DNA from: a bacterium
Lineage (GTDB): Bacteria; Krumholzibacteriota; Krumholzibacteriia; LZORAL124-64-63
Reading direction: 5' to 3'
Assembly (NCBI GenBank): GCA_018829565.1
Contig: JAHJTW010000142.1
Location: 1 to 51,207 of the forward strand
DNA: 51,207 bases
Numbering within the stretch: position 1 is the stretch's first letter; each line of letters starts with the position of its first letter. Shown here piece by piece: positions 15,248 to 30,400 of the stretch. The notes beneath the pieces were generated by a model, which saw nothing but the letters and a program-made list of their open reading frames with translations, did not search any database and was not told where the DNA came from. Made by a program: the position numbers and the translations under genes.

Positions 15248-17530
15248 TCAGTTCCAGACGACGGACCAGCGGCCCGCTCCGTCCGGGCGGATCCCGCCGG
15301 TCCTCGGTTCCTTACCCGGAAGGACCAGCCGGTATTCCCAGTCCGGTCCGGGCTCGCCGAGGAATTCGAGTTCTATCGTGGGATCCCCCTTGTCCCCCTT
15401 CACCGTCAGCAGGCAGGGCGCGGGCCCGATGCGGGTCCGGACTCGCAACTGCGGCCAGGCCGCCGGCAGGTGCGGGGCGATCTGGACCAGCGGCGGATCG
15501 GCGGTCAGGTCCACCTGCAGCCCGGCGTAGTCCTGGGCCGCGTTGCGCAGCAGCTCGGCCAGGGACCAGGCCTGGCTGGTGGCCCCGCCGAACTCGTCGT
15601 TGCTCGCGGCCTTCGCCCCGTCCCGGATCTCCTGCAGGGTGCCGACCGCCCCCTCGTCCAGGATCTCGTCGAGCAGCATCCGGGTCTGGCCGAAGCCGTC
15701 CGTCGGGTCGTTCAGCGCGGAGACGTACGCCCCGGAGAGCCACAGCCACACGTCGCCGTTGTGGTACGCCTCGTCATAGTAATAGTTGCCCAGGTCCAGG
15801 TGCCGGGGATGGAAAGCGTGATCGGCCACGTTGAGGGACAGGACCCCCCACGGCTCGACCACTTCCCGGGCCGCCTCGGCGGTGACGGCCTCCCTCTGCT
15901 GGGGCGTGAACAGGGTCGGCGAGGCCAGGATCGCCAGCAAACCGTTGGGCCGGATCTGCCCGTCCCGGGTGCCGTCGGGGTTCAGGTGGTCGACCAGGCG
16001 CCCGTCCTGCCAGAACCGGGCGTGGAACGCGGCGGCCAGCTTGTTCGCCAGGTCGACGTAGCGATCCGCGGCTGTCAGGTCGCCGGCGGCTGCGGCCAGG
16101 CGGGAGGCGGTCAATAGACCCCGGTGCCACAGGGCCTGCACCTCGACCGCCCGGTTGCCCCGGGGCGAGTAGGGATGCTCGGTGCCGCCGGCGTCCATCC
16201 AGGTCTCCCCGTCGCCGTGGACCAGGAACAGCTCGCCGTCCACCGCGGTGGCCAGGGCCCCCTCGACCGCCCGCTCCACCACCGGGGCCATGTCGGCGGC
16301 GAAGGCCGTGTCGCCCGACCAGCGCCACAGCTCGTCCACCGCACGCGTGAACCACCAGGTGCCGTCGATGCTGGCGTACTGCACCTGGTCGACGGTCACG
16401 AAGTTGGGCACCCGGCCGCGACGCGGGCTGCCGGGGTCGATGTCCTGGTAGTCGGCGAACGAACGCAGCAGGGCCTGGGCCGTTTCGAAATCACCGCTGG
16501 TGATGCAGGCGCCCGGCAGGCTGATGAATGTGTCGCGGCCCCAGTAGGTGGTGAACCAGTAGAACCCCGCGTAGATGCCCAGCCCGCGCTGGTTCATGAT
16601 CAGGTTGTCCAGCGAGATGCGGGCCCAGGCCAGGGCGCGGTCGTCCCGTTCGTCGCCGGTGGCGATGGCGGTGCGGTCGACGAGCTCCTGCAGGCGGTCG
16701 CGGCGGGCGAGCGCAAGGTCGAAGGCCGCGGCCATCAGGTTCCCCGCGCGCACGGCGGCGTCTTCGGGCTGGATGTCTGCGGCGAAGACCGCCTCGACCC
16801 GACCGCCGGGCACCTGGGGCGGGATGCGCCCGTCGATCGACCCGGGCAGGTAGGGAGAGGCCTCGGCCATGGCCTTGCGGGCCAGGCTCTTGGGGTAGGT
16901 CACGGGCTGGAAGCGGCCGTCGGGGGTGAAACCCGCCGCCCCCCGCACCTTGATCGCCAGCCAGCGCGGATGGGCGGGGTCGGGCTCGGCGGTCAGGGCG
17001 TCCTGGCGGCAGACCAGCAGGGCGCCGTCCTCCCAGCGCACCTCGTAGCCCGGCCGGCCCACCTTCCACAGGAAGCGCATGTCGATGCGGGGCACGAAGG
17101 CGAAGGTCCCCGAGGGCACCCCGTCGTAGACCACCCGGAACCCGTTCTCGCGGTCGAACAGCTCGACGGTCTCGGTCACCGTGCTCCCGTCGGGCAGCCG
17201 GTGCAGGCGGACCAGGCGGTCGGGGGCGACCGTGGCCTCGACCGCGGTCCCGGGGCCCAGCTCGGTCCCGTCCTCCAGCCTGAGGGTCCAGCCGTCCACC
17301 ACCTCGTGCATGGCGACGTAGAAGCCGTGGTAGCTGCGGGTGTCCGGGCCGATCGCCTCGCCGGCCAGGTGGGCGGCGCCCTTGTCGGTGAAGATGAATT
17401 CCCGGGGATGGTCCGGGGTCACGGGTATCGCCAGCTCGTCCAGGGTGACGCCGGCCGCAGGATGGGCTGCGCCGCCCGCCCAACCGGCCAGGGCGGCCGC
17501 AGCCAGGATCGAAAGAATTCGCTTGTCCAT
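15248..17530 (-). CDS. Secreted amylo-alpha-1,6-glucosidase / glycogen-debranching-like (alpha/alpha)6 glycoside hydrolase
   Basis: AGFYWF..WGRDTFISLPG, TWMDA, AVEVQALW, QIRPN, YHNGDVWLWL, SQAWS motifs; signal peptide from ATG 17530. Confidence 0.8.
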   Translation of the reverse strand: MDKRILSILAAAALAGWAGGAAHPAAGVTLDELAIPVTPDHPREFIFTDKGAAHLAGEAIGPDTRSYHGFYVAMHEVVDGWTLRLEDGTELGPGTAVEATVAPDRLVRLHRLPDGSTVTETVELFDRENGFRVVYDGVPSGTFAFVPRIDMRFLWKVGRPGYEVRWEDGALLVCRQDALTAEPDPAHPRWLAIKVRGAAGFTPDGRFQPVTYPKSLARKAMAEASPYLPGSIDGRIPPQVPGGRVEAVFAADIQPEDAAVRAGNLMAAAFDLALARRDRLQELVDRTAIATGDERDDRALAWARISLDNLIMNQRGLGIYAGFYWFTTYWGRDTFISLPGACITSGDFETAQALLRSFADYQDIDPGSPRRGRVPNFVTVDQVQYASIDGTWWFTRAVDELWRWSGDTAFAADMAPVVERAVEGALATAVDGELFLVHGDGETWMDAGGTEHPYSPRGNRAVEVQALWHRGLLTASRLAAAAGDLTAADRYVDLANKLAAAFHARFWQDGRLVDHLNPDGTRDGQIRPNGLLAILASPTLFTPQQREAVTAEAAREVVEPWGVLSLNVADHAFHPRHLDLGNYYYDEAYHNGDVWLWLSGAYVSALNDPTDGFGQTRMLLDEILDEGAVGTLQEIRDGAKAASNDEFGGATSQAWSLAELLRNAAQDYAGLQVDLTADPPLVQIAPHLPAAWPQLRVRTRIGPAPCLLTVKGDKGDPTIELEFLGEPGPDWEYRLVLPGKEPRTGGIRPDGAGRWSVVWN

Positions 17531-18004: not shown

Positions 18005-18667
18005 ATGCCGAGAATCCTGACCGCCATCCTGACCTGCCTGCTGCTCGCCCCGGCCGCCCTGGCCGACCAGACCGTCCTGCTTCCCATCCTCTGCGGCCAC
18101 GACGAGAGGGAGGACGCCCCGTCCCCCTGCCTCCAGGAGGACGCCTTCACCGCCGGGGTGGCCTCGGCCGACCTGTCGCTGATGACCGGCGGCCAGAGCT
18201 GGGGCTGCAACTCCGAGTGGGCCGCGTTCGTGGAGTTCGACCTGTCCTGGCTGCCCCCTGGCCACCAGGTTCTTTCGGCCGTTCTGACCGTCCGCAAGAC
18301 CGGCTACTCCGACGACTCCCAGGGCTTCTTCTACCTGGGGGTCTTCCCCTACTTCGCCTCGGGGGGCCCCATGGCCGTTCCCCGCGACGACCTGGATCCC
18401 GACACCGCCCTGGACGTGACCTACCCCCCCGCAGCCAACGTCGACCTGGTGCTGGACGTCACCGCCGGCGTTCAGGACCTGCGCCTCAACGGCCACGACC
18501 GCATCGGCCTGATCCTGGCGGGCATCTACTCGGAGGCGGGGTACGAGGACTGGATCTCCATCGGCGGCTGCGGACATCCGAACCCGCCGCGCCTGGCCCT
18601 CGAGTACGAGGGTACGGTCGATGCCGAGGCGCAGTCCTGGTCCGGGGTGAAGTCCCTGTTCCGGTGA
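18005..18667 (+). CDS. Secreted hypothetical protein with C-terminal SWSGVKSLFR motif
   Basis: GGGGGAG RBS; signal peptide ending ALA; beta-rich body (FVEFDLS...SAVLTV...DVT...PRLALEY) reminiscent of DNRLRE-like domains. Confidence 0.75.
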   Translation: MPRILTAILTCLLLAPAALADQTVLLPILCGHDEREDAPSPCLQEDAFTAGVASADLSLMTGGQSWGCNSEWAAFVEFDLSWLPPGHQVLSAVLTVRKTGYSDDSQGFFYLGVFPYFASGGPMAVPRDDLDPDTALDVTYPPAANVDLVLDVTAGVQDLRLNGHDRIGLILAGIYSEAGYEDWISIGGCGHPNPPRLALEYEGTVDAEAQSWSGVKSLFR

Positions 18668-18673
18668 CGAATC

Positions 18674-18701
18674 GGGGCTCCCGGCCCGCGCCGGGAGCCC
18701 C
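18674..18701. terminator. Hairpin between convergent genes
   Basis: Perfect 11-bp stem GGGGCTCCCGG / CCGGGAGCCCC with 6-nt loop. Confidence 0.6.
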
Positions 18702-18725
18702 TGCTGCCGCTGGTCCCTCCGATCC

Positions 18726-21700
18726 CTACCTCAGCAACAGCATCTTCAGCGACTGGTCGATACCCGCGCCGCGCAGGCGATACAGGTACACGCCGGACGG
18801 CATCATCGCGCCATCCGTGTTGCGTCCGTTCCACGTGGCGGTGCGTTCCCCGCCACCCGTGAAGCCGTCCAGCAGGACCTTCACCAGGCGGCCCTGCAGG
18901 TCGAAGACCTCCAGCTTGACCGTCCCGCCCTCGGGCGGCATCACGAAGTGGATCACCGTCGCGGGGTTGAACGGGTTGGGGGCGTTGTGGAGCAGGCCGG
19001 TCTTCAGGGGGATCTCCGGCGCAGGCGTGATCAGGTCCTCGTAGAGCGCGAAGGCCAGGTCGATCGACTGCCCGAACAGCTCGTGCTGCGGCGGGTAGAC
19101 GAGTTCACCCCAGGGGCCGGGATAGGGTTCGGCGCCAAGGCCCCAGACCGCGTCGTCGTTCCAGTGGTCCATGGTGGTCTTCCAGCCGAAGTGCGCCATG
19201 GGATCCAGGGGCCTGGCCTGGACGTCCAGCCAGTAGACCACCGCCTCGTTTTCGGTCCCTTCCTGGATGAACGCCAGGTGCGGGTCGACGTGGAACTTGT
19301 AGAGCCAGCAGGTCCAGTCCGCCGGGAAGACGTACCGGTCGGGCGGATCCATCCATCCTTCCTCGATGTCACCTGCAAAACGCTCCACATTGAAATGCAC
19401 AGGATCGAAGGTGCGGACCCAGAGCACCTCGCCCGGCATGCTGTACCCGGTGGGGCTCTGGTCGGCGGGGATGTCCGCGTGGAAGCTCAGCGTGAACTCC
19501 ACGGCCCTGGGATCCTGTCCGAAGGGCAGGTAGTCGTGGAGCCAGGAACCCCACACATGGATGTCCGTGACCGGCCCGGTGGTCGTGCACAGGAAGTCGT
19601 CCGCCAGCACGTAGGTGTTGCCGGCCTCGTCCACCGAGGCGTTCACGTCGATGCCGAAGGGGCTGAGATCCGGGTGCTGGATCCACTTGAAGACGAACCG
19701 GTCGTCGATGAACTCCTGGTGGTCCTCGACCTCACCGTCGGGCACCGCGCCCGTGGGCAGGATGCCGTCGGGACCGAGGCCGCCCATGGAGCTGAAGCGG
19801 AAGCGGGAGAAGGTCACCGTGAGCTCGGACGCCCAGGCCGGCACCGTGAACGACAGGGTGTTGAGTCCCGCGATCAGGGGCTGCGAGCCGAAGATCCGCT
19901 CCGTTGCATCGAAGGACCCGTTGGCGTTGAAGTCGAACCAGGCATCCAGCATGCCGGCGGCCGACGCGGTCACGTCCACCGTCGCCGTCTGCCCCGGCTT
20001 CAGGACTGACGTGAAGACCACGCCGTCCTCGTCGTCGAGGTTGGCGAGATCGTCCCCGGTTGCGGCCGCATTGGGCTGGCCGTCCGGTTCGCCGTCGATG
20101 AGGGCGCCCAGATGGAATCCCGGGACGATCAGGTGCCGCGGGCCGTTGCTGGCCAGCAGGGTGCGGTAACCCGTGTCGGGCGCGTCGCCGAAGTCGAGTT
20201 CCTCCGGGATCTCGGTGCCCAGGATGCGGAACGCCAGGTCCATGGACTCGGGATGGAATTCATGCTGCGGCGGGTAGATCAGCTCGTACCAGGGGCCCGG
20301 GAAAGGCTCCTGGCCGATGCCCCACACCGCATCGTCGTTCCAGTGGTCCAGGCTGCTCTTCCAGCCGAAGTAGGCCTCCGGATCGTGGGGGAACGCCTTG
20401 ACGTCCAGCCAGTAGACCACCGGATTCGCCTCGGTCCCGGTCTGCCGGAAGGCGACCGTGGGATCGATGGTGAAGGTGTACTCCCAGCAGGTGTAGTCGG
20501 CCGGGAAGATGTACTCGTCGGGCGGGTTCATCCACCCCTCGACGATGTCGACGACCAGGGGTTCGGCCCTGAACGACGCCGCCGGGAAGCCCCATTCCCA
20601 GAGCTCCTCGCCGGGCATGCTGTACCCGTCGGGATTCTGATCGGCCGGGATGTCCTTGTGGATGCTCAGGATGAAGTCCATGGCCAGAGGGTCCTGCCCG
20701 AACGGCAGGTAGTCGTAGAGCCAGGACCCGAAGATCGTGATCTCGGTCAGCAGGCCTGGGCTGGTGCACAGGAAGTCGTCGGCCAGGATGTAGCCCGGCG
20801 TCCCGTGGATCGGCGAGCAGTTGACGTCGATGCCTGTCGGCATGAGGTCCGGCCGCTGCCACCACTTGTACGCGTGTTGCATCTCGATGAAGACCCGGTG
20901 GTCTTCCACCTCGCCGTCGGGGATCCCACCGGTGGGATAGGGTCCGGAGGGGCCCAGGTTGCCGCCGGTGCTGAACCTGAACCGGGCGAAGGTGAACGTG
21001 TTCTGGACCGAACCGGGGGGCACCATGAAGCTCAGGCTGTTGAGCCCGGCCGGCAGGGGCAGGGAGGCGAAGATCTGCTCGGTCGGCTCCCAGCTTCCGC
21101 TCAGGTCGAAGTCCACCCAGGCATCCAGCATCCCGCCGCCCGAGCAGGTGACGTCCACGGTGGCGGGCTGGCCAGGCACGAGGGTCGAGGTGAAGACCAC
21201 CCCGTCCTCGTCCGGCAGGCCGTTGTTGTCGTCGCCGGTGGCCGTGGGATCCGGCTGGCCGTCGGGTTCACCGTCGATGAGGTTCCCCAGGTACAGGGGG
21301 CTCAGCAGGTGCATGGGGCCGTTGCCGGCCGCAAGGGTGGGATAAGTCGGGTCGGGCGCGTCGCCGAAGTCGTACTCCTCCGGGATTTCCGGGCCATCGA
21401 GCACGAAAGCCAGGTCGATGGACTCGCCCGGCCAGGGATGACCCTGGGGATACCGCAGTTCCCACCAGAGACCGGGCATGGGCGCCGGCCCCTCGCCCCA
21501 GACCGCGTCGTCGTTCCAGTGGTCCACGCTGGTCTTCCAGCCGAATCGCTGGGTGCCGTCCCCCATGGGGAAGGCCTTCACGCACAGCCAGTAGACCACC
21601 GGTTCGTTGGGGTTTCCCAGCTGGTAGAAGGCCTCGGGTTCGGGGATGGTGAAGTTGTACTGCCAGCAGACCGTGTCCGCCGGCGGGGGCAGGTACAAGT

Positions 21701-22130
21701 CCGGAGCATCGAGCCAGCCCTCGGCGATGCCCTCCACGTTTGGTTTTAATGATACGGCGCCCACCGGGAAGACCCGCTCCCAGAGCAGCTGCCCGGGGAT
21801 GCTGTACCCGTCGGGGTTCTCGCTGGCGGGGATGTCCGAATAGATCCCGATCTGGAACTCCACCATGCCGGGGTCGTTCTGGGGCAGCATGTCCTGCACC
21901 CAAGAACCCCAGATATGGATGTCGGTCAAAGGACCCTCCTCCTGGCAAAGGAAGTCGTCGGCCAGGATGTAGTCGCGGGGGAAGGGGGAATCGTTCACGT
22001 CGATGCCGGTGATGTCGAGGTCGGGCAACTGGATCCACTTGGCGGTCGCGCCGGGATCCCAGTCGGCCTGGAGCGGGGGAGCTGCCAGCCACAGCAGCAA
22101 GAACCCCGCAAGCCATAAGCGGTTATTCAT
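18726..22130 (-). CDS. Large secreted repeat protein: 3 x ~210-aa unknown domain alternating with 2 x GEVED module, FlgD-Ig-type CTD
   Basis: Signal peptide MNNRLWLAGFLLLWLAAPPLQA; KWxQxPDL...ADDFLC...DHWNDDAVWG...DLAF x3; DFGDAPD...DEDGV...GEVEDH x2; NAPNPFNP...DLQGRLV...WNG...SGVYLYRL...KMLLLR terminus. Confidence 0.85.
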   Translation of the reverse strand: MNNRLWLAGFLLLWLAAPPLQADWDPGATAKWIQLPDLDITGIDVNDSPFPRDYILADDFLCQEEGPLTDIHIWGSWVQDMLPQNDPGMVEFQIGIYSDIPASENPDGYSIPGQLLWERVFPVGAVSLKPNVEGIAEGWLDAPDLYLPPPADTVCWQYNFTIPEPEAFYQLGNPNEPVVYWLCVKAFPMGDGTQRFGWKTSVDHWNDDAVWGEGPAPMPGLWWELRYPQGHPWPGESIDLAFVLDGPEIPEEYDFGDAPDPTYPTLAAGNGPMHLLSPLYLGNLIDGEPDGQPDPTATGDDNNGLPDEDGVVFTSTLVPGQPATVDVTCSGGGMLDAWVDFDLSGSWEPTEQIFASLPLPAGLNSLSFMVPPGSVQNTFTFARFRFSTGGNLGPSGPYPTGGIPDGEVEDHRVFIEMQHAYKWWQRPDLMPTGIDVNCSPIHGTPGYILADDFLCTSPGLLTEITIFGSWLYDYLPFGQDPLAMDFILSIHKDIPADQNPDGYSMPGEELWEWGFPAASFRAEPLVVDIVEGWMNPPDEYIFPADYTCWEYTFTIDPTVAFRQTGTEANPVVYWLDVKAFPHDPEAYFGWKSSLDHWNDDAVWGIGQEPFPGPWYELIYPPQHEFHPESMDLAFRILGTEIPEELDFGDAPDTGYRTLLASNGPRHLIVPGFHLGALIDGEPDGQPNAAATGDDLANLDDEDGVVFTSVLKPGQTATVDVTASAAGMLDAWFDFNANGSFDATERIFGSQPLIAGLNTLSFTVPAWASELTVTFSRFRFSSMGGLGPDGILPTGAVPDGEVEDHQEFIDDRFVFKWIQHPDLSPFGIDVNASVDEAGNTYVLADDFLCTTTGPVTDIHVWGSWLHDYLPFGQDPRAVEFTLSFHADIPADQSPTGYSMPGEVLWVRTFDPVHFNVERFAGDIEEGWMDPPDRYVFPADWTCWLYKFHVDPHLAFIQEGTENEAVVYWLDVQARPLDPMAHFGWKTTMDHWNDDAVWGLGAEPYPGPWGELVYPPQHELFGQSIDLAFALYEDLITPAPEIPLKTGLLHNAPNPFNPATVIHFVMPPEGGTVKLEVFDLQGRLVKVLLDGFTGGGERTATWNGRNTDGAMMPSGVYLYRLRGAGIDQSLKMLLLR
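19050..22040 (-). repeat. Intragenic A-B-A-B-A domain repeats
   Basis: A at ~21406-22040, ~20229-20867, ~19050-19688; B at ~20898-21371, ~19719-20195. DNA blocks such as GTCGTTCCAGTGGTCCA recur in all three A units. Confidence 0.9.
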
Positions 22131-22358
22131 GGGGAACCTCCCGTGATCGAGGTTGGCCGGGCCCACGAGCCGGAGCCGGTGGCGCTCCGGGCCGGAACCC
22201 TGCTGGGGGCGTCCCGGGTCGGCAGGGACGCGAACCCCGCCCGCACTGATGGGCGGGGAAGGGCTTCGATCACGGGGGGATGTGAGGGTCGGATGCTGGT
22301 CCAGGGTGCAGGGCAGTTCAATCCCTTCACCGATGATATCACAGATTCAAAAGGATCG

Positions 22359-23459
22359 CTACCAGTAGGCGACCGCCGGATAGCCAACCCAGTGACCCAG
22401 GGTGTTCGGTGCGGTCACCCCCAGCCGGGTGCCTTCGAGTTGCAGGCGGCCGTCGGTGACGCTGTCGCCGTAACGCAAAAGCGTTCCGGTCAGCGGCCGA
22501 AGATCCAGGTCCTCTTGCAGGCGCAGCGCCGTCGTCAGACCGAAGGGAATGGAGAACAGGCCGCACCAGGTGATGCGGTAGGGCTCGGCGGGATATTCCG
22601 GGCCCTCGCGATTCCAGACCAGCCGGATGAAGGAGGCGATGCCCTCGACCGTCAGGGGCCCGGCCAGGGTCGCCTCGGCCAGGGTCACGTCCTGGGCCCG
22701 GGCGGCGGCGTGGCCCGCCTCGTCGCAGCCGAATGGCGCGTAACCCGCCCCGCCCCAGCCCTCGCAACCGTAGTGGACGGCGTCGGCGGAGATGACGATC
22801 CCGAGATCGCGACCCGGCGCCCAGCCCCGCTCCCGGCAGATCTCCGCCAGGACGCCGGCCAGCCGTCCGGCCACCAGCTCGATGCGATCCGGTTCCATGC
22901 CCGGCACCAGGATGGGCACGAAGGTGAAGTCCCCGACCGCGGCCCCGATCCACGGCAGCATGGCCTCGAGCGAGTGCTCGGCGGCATGGCGCTCGGCGTT
23001 CACCCCCGCCATCCCGGCGGGCATCCGTTCGAGCAGGACATCCCTCAGTTCCGCATCCACCGGATAGTCGCTTCCCGCCACGTTCCAGGCCGCGTCGTCC
23101 TCGAGCAGCAGCTGATCTCTCAACCCGATGCGACGGCAGGCGTGGCACACCCCGAACAGGATCCAGCGCTTCGCCCGCAGGTGGGCCAGGGCGTGGACCG
23201 CGGTGCGTCCGGCGTACAGGTAGTCGTCGTGCGGCAGGATGACCACGGACGCCGTTTCGGCGGAGCGGCGGGCCCGCGGATCGTCCAGGCCTTCCGCGGA
23301 AAACGCCGCGTAGAGGACCTTGGCGAAGTCCTCCCGGCTGACGGCGAAACCCACGGTGTCCCGCTGGGCGCGGACCGTTCCGACGGACCCGGCGGCCACC
23401 ACGGAAGCCGGGAAACACAGGGCGAGCAGGAGCAGGGCGGATGCGATGACTGGGCGCAT
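22359..23459 (-). CDS. MEMO1 / AmmeMemoRadiSam protein B-like protein with signal peptide
   Basis: LPHDDYLYAG, EHSLE, ISADAVHYG, TWCG, YGDS, VGYPAV motifs; GAAAGGA RBS before ATG 23459. Confidence 0.75.
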   Translation of the reverse strand: MRPVIASALLLLALCFPASVVAAGSVGTVRAQRDTVGFAVSREDFAKVLYAAFSAEGLDDPRARRSAETASVVILPHDDYLYAGRTAVHALAHLRAKRWILFGVCHACRRIGLRDQLLLEDDAAWNVAGSDYPVDAELRDVLLERMPAGMAGVNAERHAAEHSLEAMLPWIGAAVGDFTFVPILVPGMEPDRIELVAGRLAGVLAEICRERGWAPGRDLGIVISADAVHYGCEGWGGAGYAPFGCDEAGHAAARAQDVTLAEATLAGPLTVEGIASFIRLVWNREGPEYPAEPYRITWCGLFSIPFGLTTALRLQEDLDLRPLTGTLLRYGDSVTDGRLQLEGTRLGVTAPNTLGHWVGYPAVAYW

Positions 23460-23662
23460 GGCGGTCCTTTCGTTGCCCGGATTGTGGGACATCGTCGGCT
23501 CCGCATCAAGGGGACACCGCCCCGACATGGCCCCCCGCCCCGAAAAAATGCAGAAAAAGCGAAGATTCTTGTAACCGTTCCGCGAATAATGCGCTAGCAT
23601 TCCGCCCGTGAGTTGGAAGCATGAATGCTTCCGTTGCCGCCAACGAAGGAGGATGAGGCGCA

Positions 23663-24040
23663 ATGGCAAAGAAAGTGACCAAGAAGGCTCCGGCCAAAAA
23701 GGCCCCCGCCAAGAAGGCCCCCGCCAAGAAAGCCGAGGCCACCAAGGCCCCGACCCGGAACGAAGTCTACCGCGAGATCGCCGAGAAGACCGGCCTGGCT
23801 CGCAAGGACGTCGTCGCCGTGATCGAGAACCTGAACGACGTCATGACCAAGTCCGTGAAGAAGTTCGGGACCTTCAACTACATGGGTCTGCTGAAGCTGA
23901 CCCTGGTGAAGAAGCCCGCGGTCAAGGGCGGCAAGCTGGTGAAGAATCCCTTCACCGGCGAGATGGTCAAGCAGAAGCCGCGCCCGGCATCGCGCTCGGT
24001 CCGCGTGCGTCCTCTGAAGGCCATGAAGGACAACCTGTAG
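23663..24040 (+). CDS. HU/IHF-family DNA-binding protein with N-terminal (KKAPA)n tail
   Basis: IAEKTGLARKDV...KNPFTGE...KPRPASRSVRVRPLKAMKD; AAGGAGG upstream; 15-bp tandem repeats at 23681-23734. Confidence 0.9.
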   Translation: MAKKVTKKAPAKKAPAKKAPAKKAEATKAPTRNEVYREIAEKTGLARKDVVAVIENLNDVMTKSVKKFGTFNYMGLLKLTLVKKPAVKGGKLVKNPFTGEMVKQKPRPASRSVRVRPLKAMKDNL

Positions 24041-24068
24041 AACAAGGTCCTGGGTGCAATCAGGAGTG

Positions 24069-24100
24069 CGACCCCTGCGCCAGCGTGGGGGTCGTTTTTT
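24069..24100 (+). terminator. Rho-independent terminator of the HU gene
   Basis: CGACCCCTGCG / CGTGGGGGTCG stem followed by TTTTTT. Confidence 0.85.
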
Positions 24101-24106
24101 CGCCTG

Positions 24107-24135
24107 AAAAAAGGGGTCCGGAACGACCGGACCCC
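24107..24135 (-). terminator. Rho-independent terminator of gene 24169-24894
   Basis: GGGGTCCGG / CCGGACCCC 9-bp stem followed on the minus strand by T6. Confidence 0.85.
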
Positions 24136-24168
24136 CCGAGCCCGCGCACGGGCCTGCTGCAAAGAGGA

Positions 24169-24894
24169 CTACCGGAACAGGGCCTTGACCTCGCCGAAGG
24201 AAGCGTCCTGGGAGGGAATGACCGTGTCGGCGTAGAAGATGATGTTGTCGTAGAACACGCCCGAGCCCTGGTACAGGGTGGCAAAGTTGCCGAAGCCGAA
24301 CTGGAGGAGCTGACCCACCAGCGAGGCGTCGATGTTGATGGTGATCGAGTAGGTCGACCAGGTGGACGGGATCGCCGTCATGTCCAGCTGGATGTTGTTG
24401 GTCGTGGCGTAGCCGGCGGCGGGGTTCAGGGTCTTGATGAAGGCCCAGGCCGTGGAGTCCAGTTCCAGGTTGCCCAGCTTGGCGTCGAAGACGAAGGTCC
24501 AGGTCTCGCCGACGTCGCCGGCGCCGATCGTCTGCTCCTGGAACAGGAGGGATTCGATGTGCGCGCCGTTGGCGTGGTCGGCGTTGTTGTAGTCGCTGAA
24601 GGCGACCAGCTGCTGCATGCCCTGGGACGCTCCGCCCTCGCCGGAGGCGATGGCGCTGAAGGCGGCGCCGTCGTTGGGAGCGGGGAACACGCCGTAGCCG
24701 TACCAGTAGGCCCAGTCCGGACCGAAGACGTTGGCGAAGACCAGCCAGCCGTCATTGCCCAGCGCGCCGGTGTCGGCCTGGTTCAAGCTCTCGAAGTCCT
24801 GGCTGTACCCGTTGATGGCCAGACCCGTGGCAGGAGCCATGCAGAGGATGGCTGCGACTGCGACCAGTGCGATAGCGCGAAGTTTCATTTTCAT
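24169..24894 (-). CDS. Secreted hypothetical beta-rich protein with C-terminal SFGEVKALFR motif
   Basis: GAGAGG RBS; signal peptide MKMKLRAIALVAVAAILCMAPATGLA; QDFES...YDNIIF bracket suggests a jelly-roll; has its own promoter and terminator. Confidence 0.8.
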   Translation of the reverse strand: MKMKLRAIALVAVAAILCMAPATGLAINGYSQDFESLNQADTGALGNDGWLVFANVFGPDWAYWYGYGVFPAPNDGAAFSAIASGEGGASQGMQQLVAFSDYNNADHANGAHIESLLFQEQTIGAGDVGETWTFVFDAKLGNLELDSTAWAFIKTLNPAAGYATTNNIQLDMTAIPSTWSTYSITINIDASLVGQLLQFGFGNFATLYQGSGVFYDNIIFYADTVIPSQDASFGEVKALFR

Positions 24895-25003
24895 TGACCT
24901 CTCGTTGAAGACGATCCCGTGGTTACCCTTGAATCCCGAGTCCTGTGGCGGCAACCTTGCGGGGCCCGCAGGCACGGCATTCCCTCACGATCCCAATGGA
25001 ACG

Positions 25004-25809: not shown

Positions 25810-27417
25810 TCACTTCAAGAGAGTCAGGGCCGCATTCGAAACGGCCTCCCCCGCCTCCAACCGCGCGAAGTACACGCCCCCCGGCACGCTGCGGCCGGCG
25901 TCGTCCCGCCCGTCCCAGGTCAGGGTCATGGTTCCCGCGGGAACCGCGGCGCCTTCGAGGAGCGAGCGGACCCGCCGCCCCCTCGCATCGAAGATCGCAA
26001 GGTCGACCGCCACCGCAGAGGAGACCTCGAACGACAGGACCGTCCGCGGATTGAACGGATTGGGCGCCGCCTGCAGCAGGCGGACGCCGGACACCGGCGA
26101 TGCGGGTCGGCCATCCTCGACCGCCGAGACCACACCCGCGGGCACGAACCTGAAGTCGCTGAAGACCACTTCCTGGTCGGCGGCCGGCGAACCCGCGATG
26201 CGCCACAGGTTCAGGTGCAGGCGCGGCTGTTCGGGCCGGGGGATGTGCGGCCCCGTGTAGGTCCAGGCGTGGACCATCGTCCCGGGCCCCTCGTCGCCCG
26301 GGCCTCCCCGCCACACCCGGTACTCCACCCGGTCGGCCAGCCAGCGCATGGCGTGGCTCACGATCTCCCCCTCGGCGAAGACCGGATCGAAACGGCTGAT
26401 GTTACCCGGCCAGTCGTAGGGCTGGGCCACGAACTGCGCGAGATCGTTCGCAGGATCCTGCCAGCGGCTGTACTCGATGTCGATCTCGTTGTAGGCGTTC
26501 CACCAGGTGTAGGCGTAGTCGTAGCAGGGGCCGTATTCCCACAGGAACAGGCCGAGCACCGCCTGGGGATCGAGGGTGTCCAGGCGTCCCACCGTCGTCA
26601 GGACGTAGTCCCCGTAGCCGAGGGCCTCCTCCAGGACCACTTCGGTGCTGGTCCAGGTGCCGCTGCGGAGGCTCAGGGTCAGGTGCAGGTCGCCCGCGCC
26701 GTCCACCCAGACGCATTCGGGCGAATCGGAGAAGACGTTGGGCCCCGGCCCGTAGTACCCCGGACCCTTGACGCGCCAGGTACGTCCGGCGAAATCCAGG
26801 GCGGTGCCCCCGGTGAAGTCGGTCCACTGGACGTCGTCCTGGGTCGGCGGGCTGGTGCTGGTGAAGGTGACCTGGTCGAAGATGACGTCGCTGGAGGGAT
26901 CAACGGGGCTCTGCAGCACGCCCAGCAGGAGCCGGGCCTTCACCGTACCTGCAGGCGCGGGGCTGCTCGTCACCGAGAAGTCGAGGTACTCGTCGGTCGG
27001 TGAGGCGGCCCCGGCCACCGAGAACGAATCGTAGGAGATCAGGCCGCCGGCCGCATCGCGCCACTCGACGTTGACCAGGGCCGCATTCTGGCCGACCAGG
27101 GGTCTTGAAGCCGGGTGCCGGACGTTCCCCGTGACGACCCAGCTCTCCCCGGGGACACAATCCTGGGCCTGCCAGTAGCCGGAGACGGCCCAGTCCCCCG
27201 TGTCCGGGCCGCTGACCCGGGCCGCCTGGTGACCGTGGCTCGCCATCATCGTGGCCCCGAACGCACCGAACTGCTCCCAGCCCCCGAACACCGACCCGCC
27301 GGTCCCACCGATCTCGAAGCTGGGATTGCTGAGGATGCACTGGCCGGCCGCCGGGCTTGCGGCAGCAAGCGCAAGACCCAGAGCAAGAGCCGCCCGGGAA
27401 ACAGGAAAGGAATTCAC
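25810..27417 (-). CDS. Secreted GH16-like glycoside hydrolase with N-terminal CBM-like domain and FlgD-Ig-type CTD
   Basis: GTG start with GGGAGG; signal peptide; LSNPSFE...FDQVTF module; catalytic NEIDIEYSRW (ExDxE); APNPFNP...WDGRD...GVYFARL CTD. Confidence 0.8.
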   Translation of the reverse strand: MNSFPVSRAALALGLALAAASPAAGQCILSNPSFEIGGTGGSVFGGWEQFGAFGATMMASHGHQAARVSGPDTGDWAVSGYWQAQDCVPGESWVVTGNVRHPASRPLVGQNAALVNVEWRDAAGGLISYDSFSVAGAASPTDEYLDFSVTSSPAPAGTVKARLLLGVLQSPVDPSSDVIFDQVTFTSTSPPTQDDVQWTDFTGGTALDFAGRTWRVKGPGYYGPGPNVFSDSPECVWVDGAGDLHLTLSLRSGTWTSTEVVLEEALGYGDYVLTTVGRLDTLDPQAVLGLFLWEYGPCYDYAYTWWNAYNEIDIEYSRWQDPANDLAQFVAQPYDWPGNISRFDPVFAEGEIVSHAMRWLADRVEYRVWRGGPGDEGPGTMVHAWTYTGPHIPRPEQPRLHLNLWRIAGSPAADQEVVFSDFRFVPAGVVSAVEDGRPASPVSGVRLLQAAPNPFNPRTVLSFEVSSAVAVDLAIFDARGRRVRSLLEGAAVPAGTMTLTWDGRDDAGRSVPGGVYFARLEAGEAVSNAALTLLK

Positions 27418-27437
27418 GGCAACCTCCCAAAGGAGGA

Positions 27438-30400
27438 TCAGACCCTGGTGAGGCGATCCTTCGGAACGGCGACCCACAGCGACCGGACGCGGCCCGTCCG
27501 GCCGAAGACCGCCGCGGTCGTGGCGGCGTCCAGCCGGTCGCCGGTGTTCACGCGCGTCGTGCCGTTCACGAATTCGGCGGTGATCACGGGGCCGTCCTCG
27601 GTGAGCTGGTAGACCACGGGCACCTGGCACAGGGTGAAAGCGAGGCTTCCCGGCTCCAGCAGCAGGGAGTTCTCCCGGCCGTCGACGTCGAAGTAGCGGA
27701 ACTCGCGGTCGGTCCCCAGGAACTCCTCCGGACCGAGCAGGCCGGGGCGGAAACAGGCGACCCCGTCCTCGATGCAGATGCCCAGCTCGCCCCGGCGGGT
27801 GAGGATCTCCTCCTTCACCTGGCCGGTCATGCCCGGCTGCTTGGCGCCGCCGCTCGCGGGCGTGTGCGAGTAGGGATCGGTGGGAAAAGCTCCGTACTCG
27901 GTGACCGACTTCTCGTAGCCGATGCCCGCACGGATGCGGAAGTACATGCGGGCCAGGTCATTCGTCACCCCGGGATCGGCATCCCCCGCGACGGCCCGTT
28001 GCCAGGTCTCCTGGACCGCCAGCAGCAGCTTGGCCACCATGTGCCAGTAGATGCAGCCCAGGCCCTCGTACCCGTACATGGCTCCCGACCGCCCGGTGTA
28101 GGCCCGGTGGCGGAACACCTCCTCGTAGAGATCGAGGACAGCCTGCCGGTCCCGGGAAACGGCGGTGCTCCACCGGGGGTCGGCCCCCAGCCCGTCCAGG
28201 GCAGCCTCGAGGTCCTTCGCGTTCCCGAGCGAGGCGTTGAACCGCAGGACCCCTTCGGCGTCGCGCACTAACAGCGAACGGTCCTCCTCGGCTAGCAGAT
28301 CGACCAGCAGAGCCACCCGCTCCGCCGATCCGGCCGGCACGGTATTCTTCTCGAGGAACCCGGGCAGCTCGCGCTCCGGGTAGAGGATGAAGCTGCGCTG
28401 ATCGGGCCGATACAGGCGGCTCGCGAACAGGCGCTCCAGGATGGCCAGGGATTCGCCCGGATCCAGGACGCCCGAGGTGAGGGCGGCCACCTGTCCCTCG
28501 AGCATCTCGTACAGATGCTGCACCTCCGCACCGTCGCCATCCGGATCCGCGTCGAGCAGGTTGTAGGTGTGGAAGAGTCCGTCTGGACGCCGGTTGGCGG
28601 CGATGCCGCGGTCGATCACCTCCAGGGCGGCGCGGCAGGCCGCAACCACGCGGCCGACGGGCAGCGCCGTCTTCCCGCTGAACCCGCCCGCGTAGACCTT
28701 GTCCCGGTAACGGGAGAACGTCTCGCCGAAAGCATCCAGCAGCTCCCGCCGCTGCTTCGAGGTCAAGGCGCCGGCGGCGGTCAGTTCCCGGGCCTCGTCG
28801 AGGGCCGCGGCGATCCCGTCGAACCAGGCGACGACCTCGGCGCTCACCGGAAGCCTCTCCTGCTTCCGTCCTTCGAGCAGGTCGGCCAGGAAGGCCAGGT
28901 ACCGGCGCAGGTGGCAGAGCGTGACCACCGAGACGCCGCCTCCGGCCAGGGCGTTGTTGGCGTCGTTCCATTCGGGCCGCTGGGTGTTCATCCAGATGCC
29001 CGCGTCGCAGACCAGGTTCGACAGCTTGGCCAGGGCGGGGACCAGCAGCTTCTCCAGCAGGTTGGCGTGGTAGACCTCGCCGTCGGGCCCGGCGACCAGC
29101 TTGCCGTCGGTGCCGTGTCCATCCACCCGGGCGGCGATGCGCGCGTCGAGTTCCGCGTCGAACACGATGGTCGAGCGGGGATCCCGCAGCAGGTCCGCGT
29201 AGGGCTTGATGCGGTAGGGAACGTCGGCGTAGCTGAAGATCTCGGCCTCCAGCATCCCGGCCAGGCCCTCCGGATCGTGGCGGTCCCAGGCTTCCAGCAG
29301 CTTCAACAGGTAGATGATCTGGTGATCGCCCCAGTAGCCGATGTTGCTCCAGGGATCGTCGGGCGAGACGGACTCCCAGTCCACTCCGTTGCGGTCGATA
29401 CGGTAGGGATTGAACCCGTCCCGCGTCGAGGCGTTGACGAACTTGGCCACGATGTTGGGCAGGAACCCGGGGAACGCGGTGCAGAGGGCTTCCCAGTTCT
29501 GGAAGATGTCCCGCCAGTTGCCCTCGTAGCTCAGGAGGCGTTCGCCTTCGCCGTTGCGCACGCGGATGGCGAATCGGTTCCAGGGCCGGCTCGGATCGCC
29601 GTGGCGCCGCCCGAAGTGGAGCGGCAGGTATTCCAGGCACAGGCGGATGAAGTCCGCGTCCCCCGTGGCCCGGGCACGGGCGATCAGGTCGTCCACGGTC
29701 ACCGGATCAGGCAGCGCCACGATCGCGGCGCGCCGGCGCTCGGCCACGGCGGAATTGCGGACCTGCAGGAAATCGGTGAAATCCCCCACCGGCACGTCGT
29801 AGTTGGCGGCGAAGACCCCGCCCCTCATGTTGTTGAACAGCACGTTGGCGAAGTGGTGGACCCAGACCGCCGGGGCACCGGTCACCTGGAGGCCGTCCGC
29901 GCTGGCCACGTAACGCCGCAGGTTCCGGTCCGCCTCCCTCAGGCCCGTGGTCAGGCGGCCCGGCAAATCCTCGTCAGCGATGAGGAGTTTCCGCAACTCG
30001 CCCAGCTGAGCATGATCCCGGCCGGTGTCGGCCGCCAGGTACCATTCCTCCGCTTCGAGGGCATCGAGATCCACCCCGAAGCTGATCAGATAGTTGCCCC
30101 GGGACCCGTTAAGAACCTCATCGGGTGCGATCACCTCGCCTCTGCGGAAGCCGGCCACCGCATCCAGGGACAGATGGATCCGGTAGCTTTCCAGACCGCA
30201 ACACCAGACGGTGTTGGCCCGCAGCACTTCCACCGCCTCGGCCCGGTCGGTGATCCCGGCGGTCAGGGAGAAGATCCCCATTCCGGTCTCGGGATCGACC
30301 TCGGATTTCTTGTAGGCGTCCACCAGGTTCGGCGCCTGCTGGTAGAGACCCAGCGGAGCCCCGAAGGGCAGGATGTTCCGCAGCCCGTCAAGGACCATCG

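Follow-up and report, generated by a model that had tools for sequence, protein, structure and literature searches.

The window analysed here is the whole 51,207-nucleotide contig JAHJTW010000142.1 of a Krumholzibacteriota genome (assembly GCA_018829565.1). It holds two genes for exported proteins, of 220 and 241 residues, which end in almost the same short peptide, here called the tail (Table 1). The original prediction had singled out these two signal-peptide proteins with near-identical ends, and had read the shared end as the targeting tag of an undescribed export or surface-anchoring pathway. Both ends are present by translation. On the forward strand, 18560-18670 translates to an end ...EGTVDAEAQSWSGVKSLFR followed by a stop, which closes the open reading frame (ORF) 18005-18667, and the 220-residue protein has the C-terminus ...TVDAEAQSWSGVKSLFR-stop. 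On the reverse strand, 24166-24285 ends ...ADTVIPSQDASFGEVKALFR before its stop and closes ORF 24169-24975, and the C-terminus of the 241-residue protein is ...TVIPSQDASFGEVKALFR-stop. Within this longer ORF the protein likely starts with MKMKL at 24894, a start preferred because the resulting 241 residues match orthologues of about 239. A hidden Markov model (HMM) built from 48 tails scored the tail of the 220-residue protein at 34.1 bits (39.4 bits in a phylum-wide profile scan) and that of the 241-residue protein at 28.6 bits. Neither window protein had a match in Pfam; a weak NCBIfam DNRLRE match to the 220-residue protein was the only one in either library.

Table 1. Genes and tails in the window, with the two further loci of a small tail protein discussed in the text (T9SS, type IX secretion system; CTD, C-terminal domain; CBM, carbohydrate-binding module; FN3, fibronectin type III; MAG, metagenome-assembled genome).
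Feature	Position	Strand	Description
220-residue exported protein, gene	18005..18667	+	ORF; signal peptide, CBM-like β-sandwich ~20-202, linker 203-211, tail helix 212-219
C-terminal tag of the 220-residue protein	18617..18664	+	last 16 residues, V..E..SWSGVKSLFR; stop 18665-18667
241-residue exported protein, gene	24169..24894	-	signal peptide (helix 2-24), CBM-like jelly roll 28-223, disordered linker 224-232, tail helix 233-240
C-terminal tag of the 241-residue protein	24172..24222	-	last 17 residues, VIPSQDASFGEVKALFR; linker one residue longer than consensus; stop 24169-24171
1146-residue secreted protein, neighbour and comparator	18726..22166	-	three DUF7901 (470 bits in all), GEVED domains, C-terminal FlgD_ig / T9SS type-A CTD (Pfam, NCBIfam)
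606-residue protein, comparator	25810..27630	-	FlgD_ig / T9SS-type CTD at end; seed for CTD HMM
FN3-tail protein, Adhaeribacter terrigena	L189:5874-6275	-
FN3-tail protein, Ignavibacteria MAG	L190:5757-6176	-

The genome to which the window belongs (4.39 Mb in 354 contigs, 67% G+C, 89.2% complete) was translated in six frames, giving 33,638 stop-to-stop ORFs of at least 60 residues, or 6.17 million residues. The expression [ST][WFY]..[VILM]K..[FYW][RK] occurred 50 times in these ORFs: 45 matches lay exactly at the stop, three were one residue short of it and two were internal. The internal frequency predicts 0.011 terminal matches where 45 were observed, and the likeness of the two window tails is not due to chance. 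With the tail HMM we found 74 ORFs with a tail no more than five residues from the stop, the weakest few of which are doubtful, and a genome-wide profile scan at E ≤ 0.01 gave at least 57 matches. The genome therefore encodes about 60-70 tail ORFs, which excludes confinement of the motif to the two window proteins.

The consensus of the tail is V-x-x-E-x-x-[ST]-[WF]-G-x-[VIL]-K-[AS]-[LM]-[FYW]-[RK]-stop, and it follows a flexible acidic linker of about nine residues. Counting back from the last residue (-1), a logo of 59 clean tails gave V(-16) in 44, E(-13) in 40, S(-10) in 45, W or F(-9) in 55 and G(-8) in 52, followed by V, L or I(-6) in 58, K(-5) in all 59, A or S(-4) in 51, L or M(-3) in 48, and F, Y or W(-2) and R or K(-1) in all 59. 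The consensus first proposed from two sequences is thus real, and extends upstream to V(-16) and E(-13). K(-5) is the only fully invariant residue (59/59 here and 49/49 in a second count). In 30 of the 59 tails, one or two Cys residues stand at -24 to -11, immediately ahead of the acidic linker; they probably form a disulfide that closes the passenger domain, as expected of exported domains.

The tail is also terminal in homologues of the window proteins. The 241-residue protein has 1355 homologues of about 239 residues, and each of the 120 listed (59-96% identical) finishes with the tail or a near variant of it, as called by a strict regular expression for 93 and by eye for the other 27; those that are named belong to Candidatus Krumholzibacteriia/-ota. 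All 94 homologues of the 220-residue protein carry [ST]W[SG]x[VLI]K..[YFW]R, which is terminal in 93 and followed by 11 further residues in one.

The proteins that bear the tail are mostly small (median 225 residues, 55/66 of 300 or fewer), and the domains that precede it, here called passengers, are diverse. Signal peptide and tail were removed from the 66 tail proteins of at least 150 residues and the remainders linked by BLAST at E ≤ 1e-5, which left 39 unconnected passenger clusters, 30 of them singletons. A Pfam search of 60 tail proteins found Beta_helix in seven, LTD in three, CHRD in two, and CBM_20, CBM96, DUF4114 and DUF7451 in one each, with about 42 showing none; over the tail itself, neither Pfam nor NCBIfam had a match in any of the 60. 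The expected concentration on Sec-signal proteins was borne out: signal-peptide-like N-termini were found for 62/69 tail ORFs and 113/125 CTD ORFs against 510/1326 other genes of 150-450 residues, as scored by a home-made hydrophobicity heuristic (a basic n-region and an uncharged hydrophobic decamer, best over start codons). The N-termini of the tail proteins are classic MKK...AxA peptides. Two tail proteins gave weak matches to the PEP-CTERM protein PepA.

AlphaFold2 models of the 241- and 220-residue proteins, from alignments of 60 and 64 sequences, were both confident β-sandwiches (predicted local distance difference test, pLDDT, 88.5 and 90.8). In Foldseek searches the best matches of the 220-residue protein were a chondroitin-sulfate CBM (8wab, template-modelling score 0.60/0.73) and an alginate CBM (7vbo), and the 241-residue protein matched CBM22/16/4/61-like folds and Stig cyclases. 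Each model places the tail as a detached eight-residue helix behind a low-confidence linker of about nine residues, the helix itself having low or moderate confidence (pLDDT ~45 and ~71). By this arrangement, with the helix beyond the sandwich and its linker, the tail is an appendage outside the passenger fold, and this agrees with the short helix lacking a transmembrane segment that had been proposed. One face of such a helix would be lined by W(-9), V(-6), L(-3) and F(-2), and G(-8)xxx[AS](-4) would make up a face of small residues.

The tail and the CTD of the T9SS replace one another on related proteins. In the genome of the window, 152 ORFs end in a FlgD_ig / T9SS type-A-like CTD (median stop-to-stop length 717 residues), and none of them has a tail. 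Residues 27-218 of the 241-residue protein are 51% identical (E 1e-55) to residues 23-217 of a 324-residue paralogue (G000:C304), which runs on into a FlgD_ig-type CTD, NYPNPFNP...SMILLK. Similarly, six β-helix tail proteins share 28-41% identity over the whole passenger with two CTD proteins, and another tail-protein family corresponds to the N-domain of two CTD proteins. Longer homologues of the 241-residue passenger number 170 at E ≤ 1e-5. Among the 120 of these that were listed, 34 carry PF13860/PF18962 and none ends in the tail; others are fused to catalytic domains of glycoside hydrolase families 16 and 17 (GH16/GH17), TSP3 repeats or SLH. In many homologues from outside the Fibrobacteres-Chlorobi-Bacteroidetes (FCB) group the passenger domain is itself C-terminal, ending a few residues after ...FYDN. 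Since homologous passengers carry the CTD, or neither module, in its place, the tail is an add-on that alternates with the CTD; the swap of the tail for a CTD on homologous passengers, which the original prediction had asked after, is seen between paralogues, one of which bears a FlgD_ig CTD where the 241-residue window protein bears the tail.

The jelly-roll module of the 241-residue protein is fused to GH16 and GH17 (β-1,3-glucanase) domains in other phyla, including Proteobacteria, and occurs in longer proteins of Planctomycetes and Verrucomicrobiota without a Pfam-annotated partner domain. The fusions suggest that it binds β-glucan.

The two kinds of C-terminus also resemble each other at their very ends. 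The pattern [LIVMF][LIVMFYW][KR]-COOH closes 126/152 CTD ORFs and 51/74 tail ORFs but 29/2898 other genes, several of which are degenerate tails. In Porphyromonas gingivalis, the C-terminal motif of the CTD (its last strand, with a conserved Lys, hydrophobic residues and a basic end) is needed for translocation, and the targeting signal of HBP35 has been mapped to the last 22 residues, with C-terminal extensions tolerated (PMC11285876). Tail genes lie close to CTD genes: 16/66 have the 3' end of a CTD gene no more than 700 bp away, compared with 91/2901 background genes (odds ratio 9.9, from crude gene calls, and secreted-protein genes may simply cluster), and 11 of the 16 are directly downstream of the CTD gene on the same strand. 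In the window, the 220-residue tail gene and the gene for the 1146-residue CTD protein converge, with their 3' ends 59 bp apart.

The tail is found throughout the phylum of the window and beyond it. The tail profile matched in 151/151 sampled genomes of Candidatus Krumholzibacteriota (117/117 of high quality, 69/69 genera, 9 families), with from 2 to at least 57 matches per genome. In a second phylum-level group, that of a genome titled 'Gemmatimonadota' (G155), all nine genomes had 12-61 matches each, and in a third, that of a genome titled 'Eisenbacteria' (G153), 30/41 genomes had 1-22 each; the counts for this third group include one unpublished genome (G178), without which they become 29/40 for the tail and 39/40 for SprA, the T9SS component considered below. 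A genome titled 'uncultured Fibrobacteraceae' (G154, 71 matches) was dropped as an independent phylum. It sits in the phylum of the window, since its GTDB phylum sample gives matches identical to those of the Krumholzibacteriota scan, and record titles of MAGs are therefore unusable as independent taxonomy; 'Gemmatimonadota', 'Latescibacteria' and 'Eisenbacteria' are to be taken with the same caution. The stop followed directly after the tail in 10/10 top matches checked in G154 and in 8/10 in G155, where one more had a single extra residue and the tenth was not captured by the regular expression. The top matches of both genomes retain V..E..[ST][WF]G.

A DNA pattern for [ST]WGx[VIM]K[AS][LMI][FY]R-stop, carrying about 38 bits and estimated to give a few matches by chance, was scanned over one genome per GTDB species and matched at least 125 stretches. 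The motif closes an open frame in all 80 matches listed. Record titles of these 80 loci name members of the FCB group (Ignavibacteria, Bacteroidota, Eisenbacteria, Zixibacteria, Latescibacterota, KSB1, Cloacimonadota, Calditrichaceae, Chlorobiaceae and Krumholzibacteriia), and the remaining ones unclassified bacteria and one 'Alphaproteobacteria'. The Krumholzibacteriota-trained profile gave no matches in single genomes titled Zixibacteria, KSB1 and Calditrichaceae, one in a Cloacimonadota genome and 32 in one titled 'Latescibacteria'.

In Bacteroidota the tail occurs on one small protein of 130-190 residues, with a signal peptide, an FN3-like domain, a basic linker and the end TWGSIKAMFR-stop (two examples are given in Table 1). 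This protein has no Pfam or NCBIfam family and appears in the ESM Atlas in clusters of 'hypothetical proteins'. Its FN3-like domain is the one that large T9SS cargo proteins of the same organism carry immediately ahead of their type-A CTD. The full-length protein was found in 74 of 201 sampled Bacteroidota, in 74/162 genomes with SprA and 0/39 without, although the 39 look like one sampled stratum and are not independent. Searches of PDB sequences with the tail profile and the FN3-tail profile returned nothing relevant.

Taken with the above, the tail is almost certainly a real, modular C-terminal tag. It is widely conserved, terminal and abundant, and independent of the passenger fold. It is also uncatalogued in the libraries searched (Pfam and NCBIfam) and in the literature: no description of it was found in accessible papers, subscription-only ones lying outside the search.

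How does the tail compare with known C-terminal signals? As the original prediction held, it is unlike PEP-CTERM, LPXTG and GlyGly-CTERM. It shares with the PEP-CTERM/exosortase system a short C-terminal signal on many small (~200-300 residues) signal-peptide proteins of unrelated families, and an acidic motif resembling V-P/x-x-E before a hydrophobic stretch and a basic end. Unlike PEP-CTERM, it has no transmembrane helix, has only about nine residues after the motif, a Lys among them, and ends in a single Arg or Lys instead of an Arg cluster. Exosortase (PF09721) had no match in the 89.2%-complete genome; PEP_CTERM (TIGR02595) had none either, which is a weak negative as the control was also silent. 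Sortase (PF04203) had no match in the genome and the tail contains no LPXTG-like motif. For rhombosortase (TIGR03902) the best score was 51 bits, below the cut-off of 84, and this match is a generic rhomboid, because the model matches in all 14 control genomes; the tail, lacking a transmembrane segment, does not have the GlyGly-CTERM architecture. A dockerin profile matched none of 60 tail proteins, and the tail has 16 residues compared with the duplicated Ca-binding module of about 70. The β-signal of outer-membrane proteins is a C-terminal strand ending in an aromatic residue, on a β-barrel protein, while the tail ends in R or K in 59/59 cases and its passengers are soluble sandwiches and β-helices. 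'Choice-of-anchor' is an NCBIfam concept for a surface-protein architecture, and the tail fits it in that the same passenger occurs with alternative C-terminal modules (tail, FlgD_ig CTD, TSP3 repeats or SLH), but the tail is absent from the catalogued anchors.

The T9SS type-A CTD (TIGR04183 / PF18962, and the PF13860 form) is one of the closest known signals. Proteins that bear it depend on the T9SS for secretion, and PorU removes the CTD. Both stand at the extreme C-terminus of Sec-exported proteins, both are dozens-fold paralogous in the same genomes (152 CTD ORFs and ~70 tails in this one), both are carried by the same passengers, both end in L-hydrophobic-[KR]-COOH with a conserved Lys a few residues upstream, and both have an FCB-group distribution. 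They differ in size and form: the CTD is an Ig-like sandwich of 70-100 residues on large proteins, whereas the tail is some 16 residues behind a flexible linker on small ones, and so, as had been proposed, far shorter.

The genome encodes SprA, above the cut-off, together with PorV-like barrel genes that score below it and a PorU-like sortase in two pieces on different contigs, which score 206 and 177 bits and also fall short of the cut-off. SprA was found in 150/151 Krumholzibacteriota genomes, in G155, and in 40/41 genomes of the phylum of G153. Two candidate correlates were rejected. The number of PorV-like paralogues did not separate tail-rich genomes (5-8) from tail-poor ones (3-13), and the only recurrent neighbours within 4 kb of tail genes were multidomain CTD proteins, grouped by single linkage into one cluster, and two-component regulators of common types, none of them a candidate machine.

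We think it probable that the tail is a localisation signal read by a specific partner. Our preferred account, which we hold tentatively, is that it is a compact, receptor-read signal that runs parallel in function to the T9SS CTD and may be connected with it. The bearers of the tag are Sec-exported proteins, mostly small and with one domain (CBM-like jelly rolls, LTD, CHRD and β-helix), to which a short flexible acidic linker joins it. The tag would present the recognition surface of a short helix or strand, made up of the invariant Lys -5, Gly -8, the aromatic -9 side chain and the basic end, to a protein receptor, and this reader may be part or partner of the type IX secretion or outer-membrane pathway. 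The tail would then be a pared-down equivalent of the C-terminal motif of the CTD, and would move small proteins with glycan-binding or accessory roles from the periplasm to the outside or to the cell surface. A link to the T9SS is possible on present evidence, which leans that way because the tail replaces the CTD on paralogues, shares its end signature and co-occurs with SprA. Of the original proposal, the tag came through all three of the refuting conditions set for it; that the pathway is an undescribed one is unsupported.

Several results weigh against this account. SprA is near-universal in every group searched, and its co-occurrence with the tail therefore discriminates poorly; 11/41 genomes in the phylum of G153 have SprA and no detectable tail. 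Most T9SS-bearing Bacteroidota have at most one tail protein, so the T9SS works without tails, and the SprA-negative Bacteroidota are not independent samples. No receptor, protease or channel for the tail was found in the searches made, and the T9SS CTD models (Por_Secre_tail / FlgD_ig) matched the tail neither in the two window proteins nor in 60 further tail proteins. The tail has roughly one fifth of the length of a CTD and lacks its β-sandwich fold, and even the shared end signature differs in detail, with K(-5) and an aromatic residue at -2 in tails against K or R at -6 and an aliphatic residue at -2 in CTDs. The low or moderate confidence of the tail helix, the heuristic behind the signal-peptide counts and the crude gene calls behind the adjacency figure point the same way.

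A different explanation, which we consider unlikely, is that the tail acts with no machinery at all, as a short cationic amphipathic helix that anchors the protein peripherally in the interface of an anionic leaflet or on lipopolysaccharide. The C-terminal helices of PBP5/6 and the MinD-type targeting sequences are C-terminal amphipathic membrane anchors of this sort, and the tail would resemble them in its shortness, its positive charge and amphipathic character as a helix, its place at the extreme end of the protein and its independence of any enzyme. The eight-residue helix predicted behind a flexible linker in both window proteins would suit such a role, as would the charge distribution in the 59 clean tails (net -1.8 in the linker, -18 to -11, and +1.9 in the last ten residues), a helical hydrophobic moment of 0.47, the lack of a transmembrane segment and the failure of the searches to find a dedicated exosortase, sortase or rhombosortase. 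However, the tail is shorter than these anchors and far more constrained in sequence, and each genome has it on some 70 exported proteins that are unrelated. Across unrelated passengers and across phyla, near-invariance holds for K(-5), G(-8), S(-10), V(-16) and E(-13), a tighter constraint than binding to lipid usually imposes. With eight to ten residues and a mean hydrophobicity of 0.03, the tail would make a weak anchor, and the moment calculated for a strand (0.51) matches that for a helix, so that the two conformations are not distinguished. The passengers (CBMs, LTD, β-helix) are also of extracellular type, with paralogues sent through the outer membrane by a CTD.

The proximity of tail genes to CTD genes raises the idea of a docking peptide, a miniature 'dockerin' that plugs into a receptor domain (cohesin-like, pre-CTD or CTD) of a large T9SS-anchored protein. 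The small subunits would assemble on a CTD-bearing partner or ride out with it, an idea that seems to us improbable. Besides the 16 of 66 tail genes near CTD-gene 3' ends, one point in its favour is a 1400-residue β-helix protein (G000:C233; L201:790-4989:-) that has a Pfam Cohesin match (1188-1277, 31 bits) just before its CTD and is encoded directly upstream of a tail gene. Three tail-rich genomes, of which two belong to the phylum of the window, had 2, 3 and 3 Cohesin matches, and two tail-poor ones had 0 and 0, although such domains are few and the counts too low to carry weight. A domain of about 120 residues without a Pfam name is always placed some 100 residues short of the protein end, immediately ahead of the FlgD_ig CTD (for example in L195:1202-2476:- and L196:903-4202:-); this pre-CTD domain was found in nine ORFs, four of which adjoin tail genes. 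On the other hand, most of the partner proteins have nothing but the CTD in common, 50/66 tail genes have no CTD-gene neighbour, no dockerin model matches the tail, and docking by itself leaves the passage of the small protein across the outer membrane unexplained. A complex prediction for the pre-CTD and CTD of an S8 peptidase (G000:C192, 870-1100) with the tail protein encoded just downstream (24-211) gave a score of 0.01 against a mark of 0.34, which speaks neither for nor against binding.

In Braun's lipoprotein the C-terminal Lys is joined to peptidoglycan by an L,D-transpeptidase, and the invariant Lys of the tail could by analogy donate or accept a covalent bond, to peptidoglycan for instance, and so fix the proteins to the wall. 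Full invariance of K(-5) alone among the positions and its basic C-terminal context would fit such a tether; as the Lys is not the terminal residue and the passengers look extracellular and not periplasmic, we regard it as very improbable. Close to refuted is the notion that there is no tag and that the tail is the best-conserved last element of one much-diverged paralogous family of small β-sandwich proteins, for although the uniform sizes and the many β-sandwiches would fit, there are 39 unrelated clusters, with parallel β-helices, LTD, CHRD and CBM_20 among them, the tail is structurally detached in the predicted models, and homologous passengers end without the tail outside these phyla and bear a CTD instead in paralogues.

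Two other genes of the window lie near those of the tail proteins. Positions 23663-24040 (+) encode a 125-residue HU-type DNA-binding protein (Bac_DNA_binding, 46 bits) with an N-terminal Lys/Ala-rich extension of AKKAP repeats that recalls histone H1-like tails. Just upstream of the tail-protein locus, 15251-17530 (-) encodes a 760-residue protein with a signal-peptide-like start and a GDE_C amylo-α-1,6-glucosidase domain (215 bits).

LPXTG, PEP-CTERM and the T9SS CTDs each led to a dedicated machine and are now standard annotation tools. The tail shares the statistical signature of these known sorting signals, in that it occurs tens of times per genome, strictly at the C-terminus, on signal-peptide proteins, independently of the passenger and across phyla. 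A profile of it would put a label on 'hypothetical proteins' by the thousand, from Krumholzibacteriota and from uncultured groups related to them, as well as on a conserved orphan of Bacteroidota. It is conceivable, though more doubtful than not, that FCB-group bacteria have in the tail a third and minimal class of signal for export across, or anchoring at, the outer membrane, in which a linear tag of about 16 residues suffices without an 80-residue CTD to hand small folded proteins to the T9SS or another outer-membrane receptor. If so, about 2% of the proteome would owe its localisation to the tail, in Krumholzibacteriota and in no fewer than two further uncultured groups of phylum level. Were the T9SS to read the tail, its minimal recognition element would become testable with a 16-residue peptide; were it not to, the tail would point to an unknown outer-membrane sorting route.

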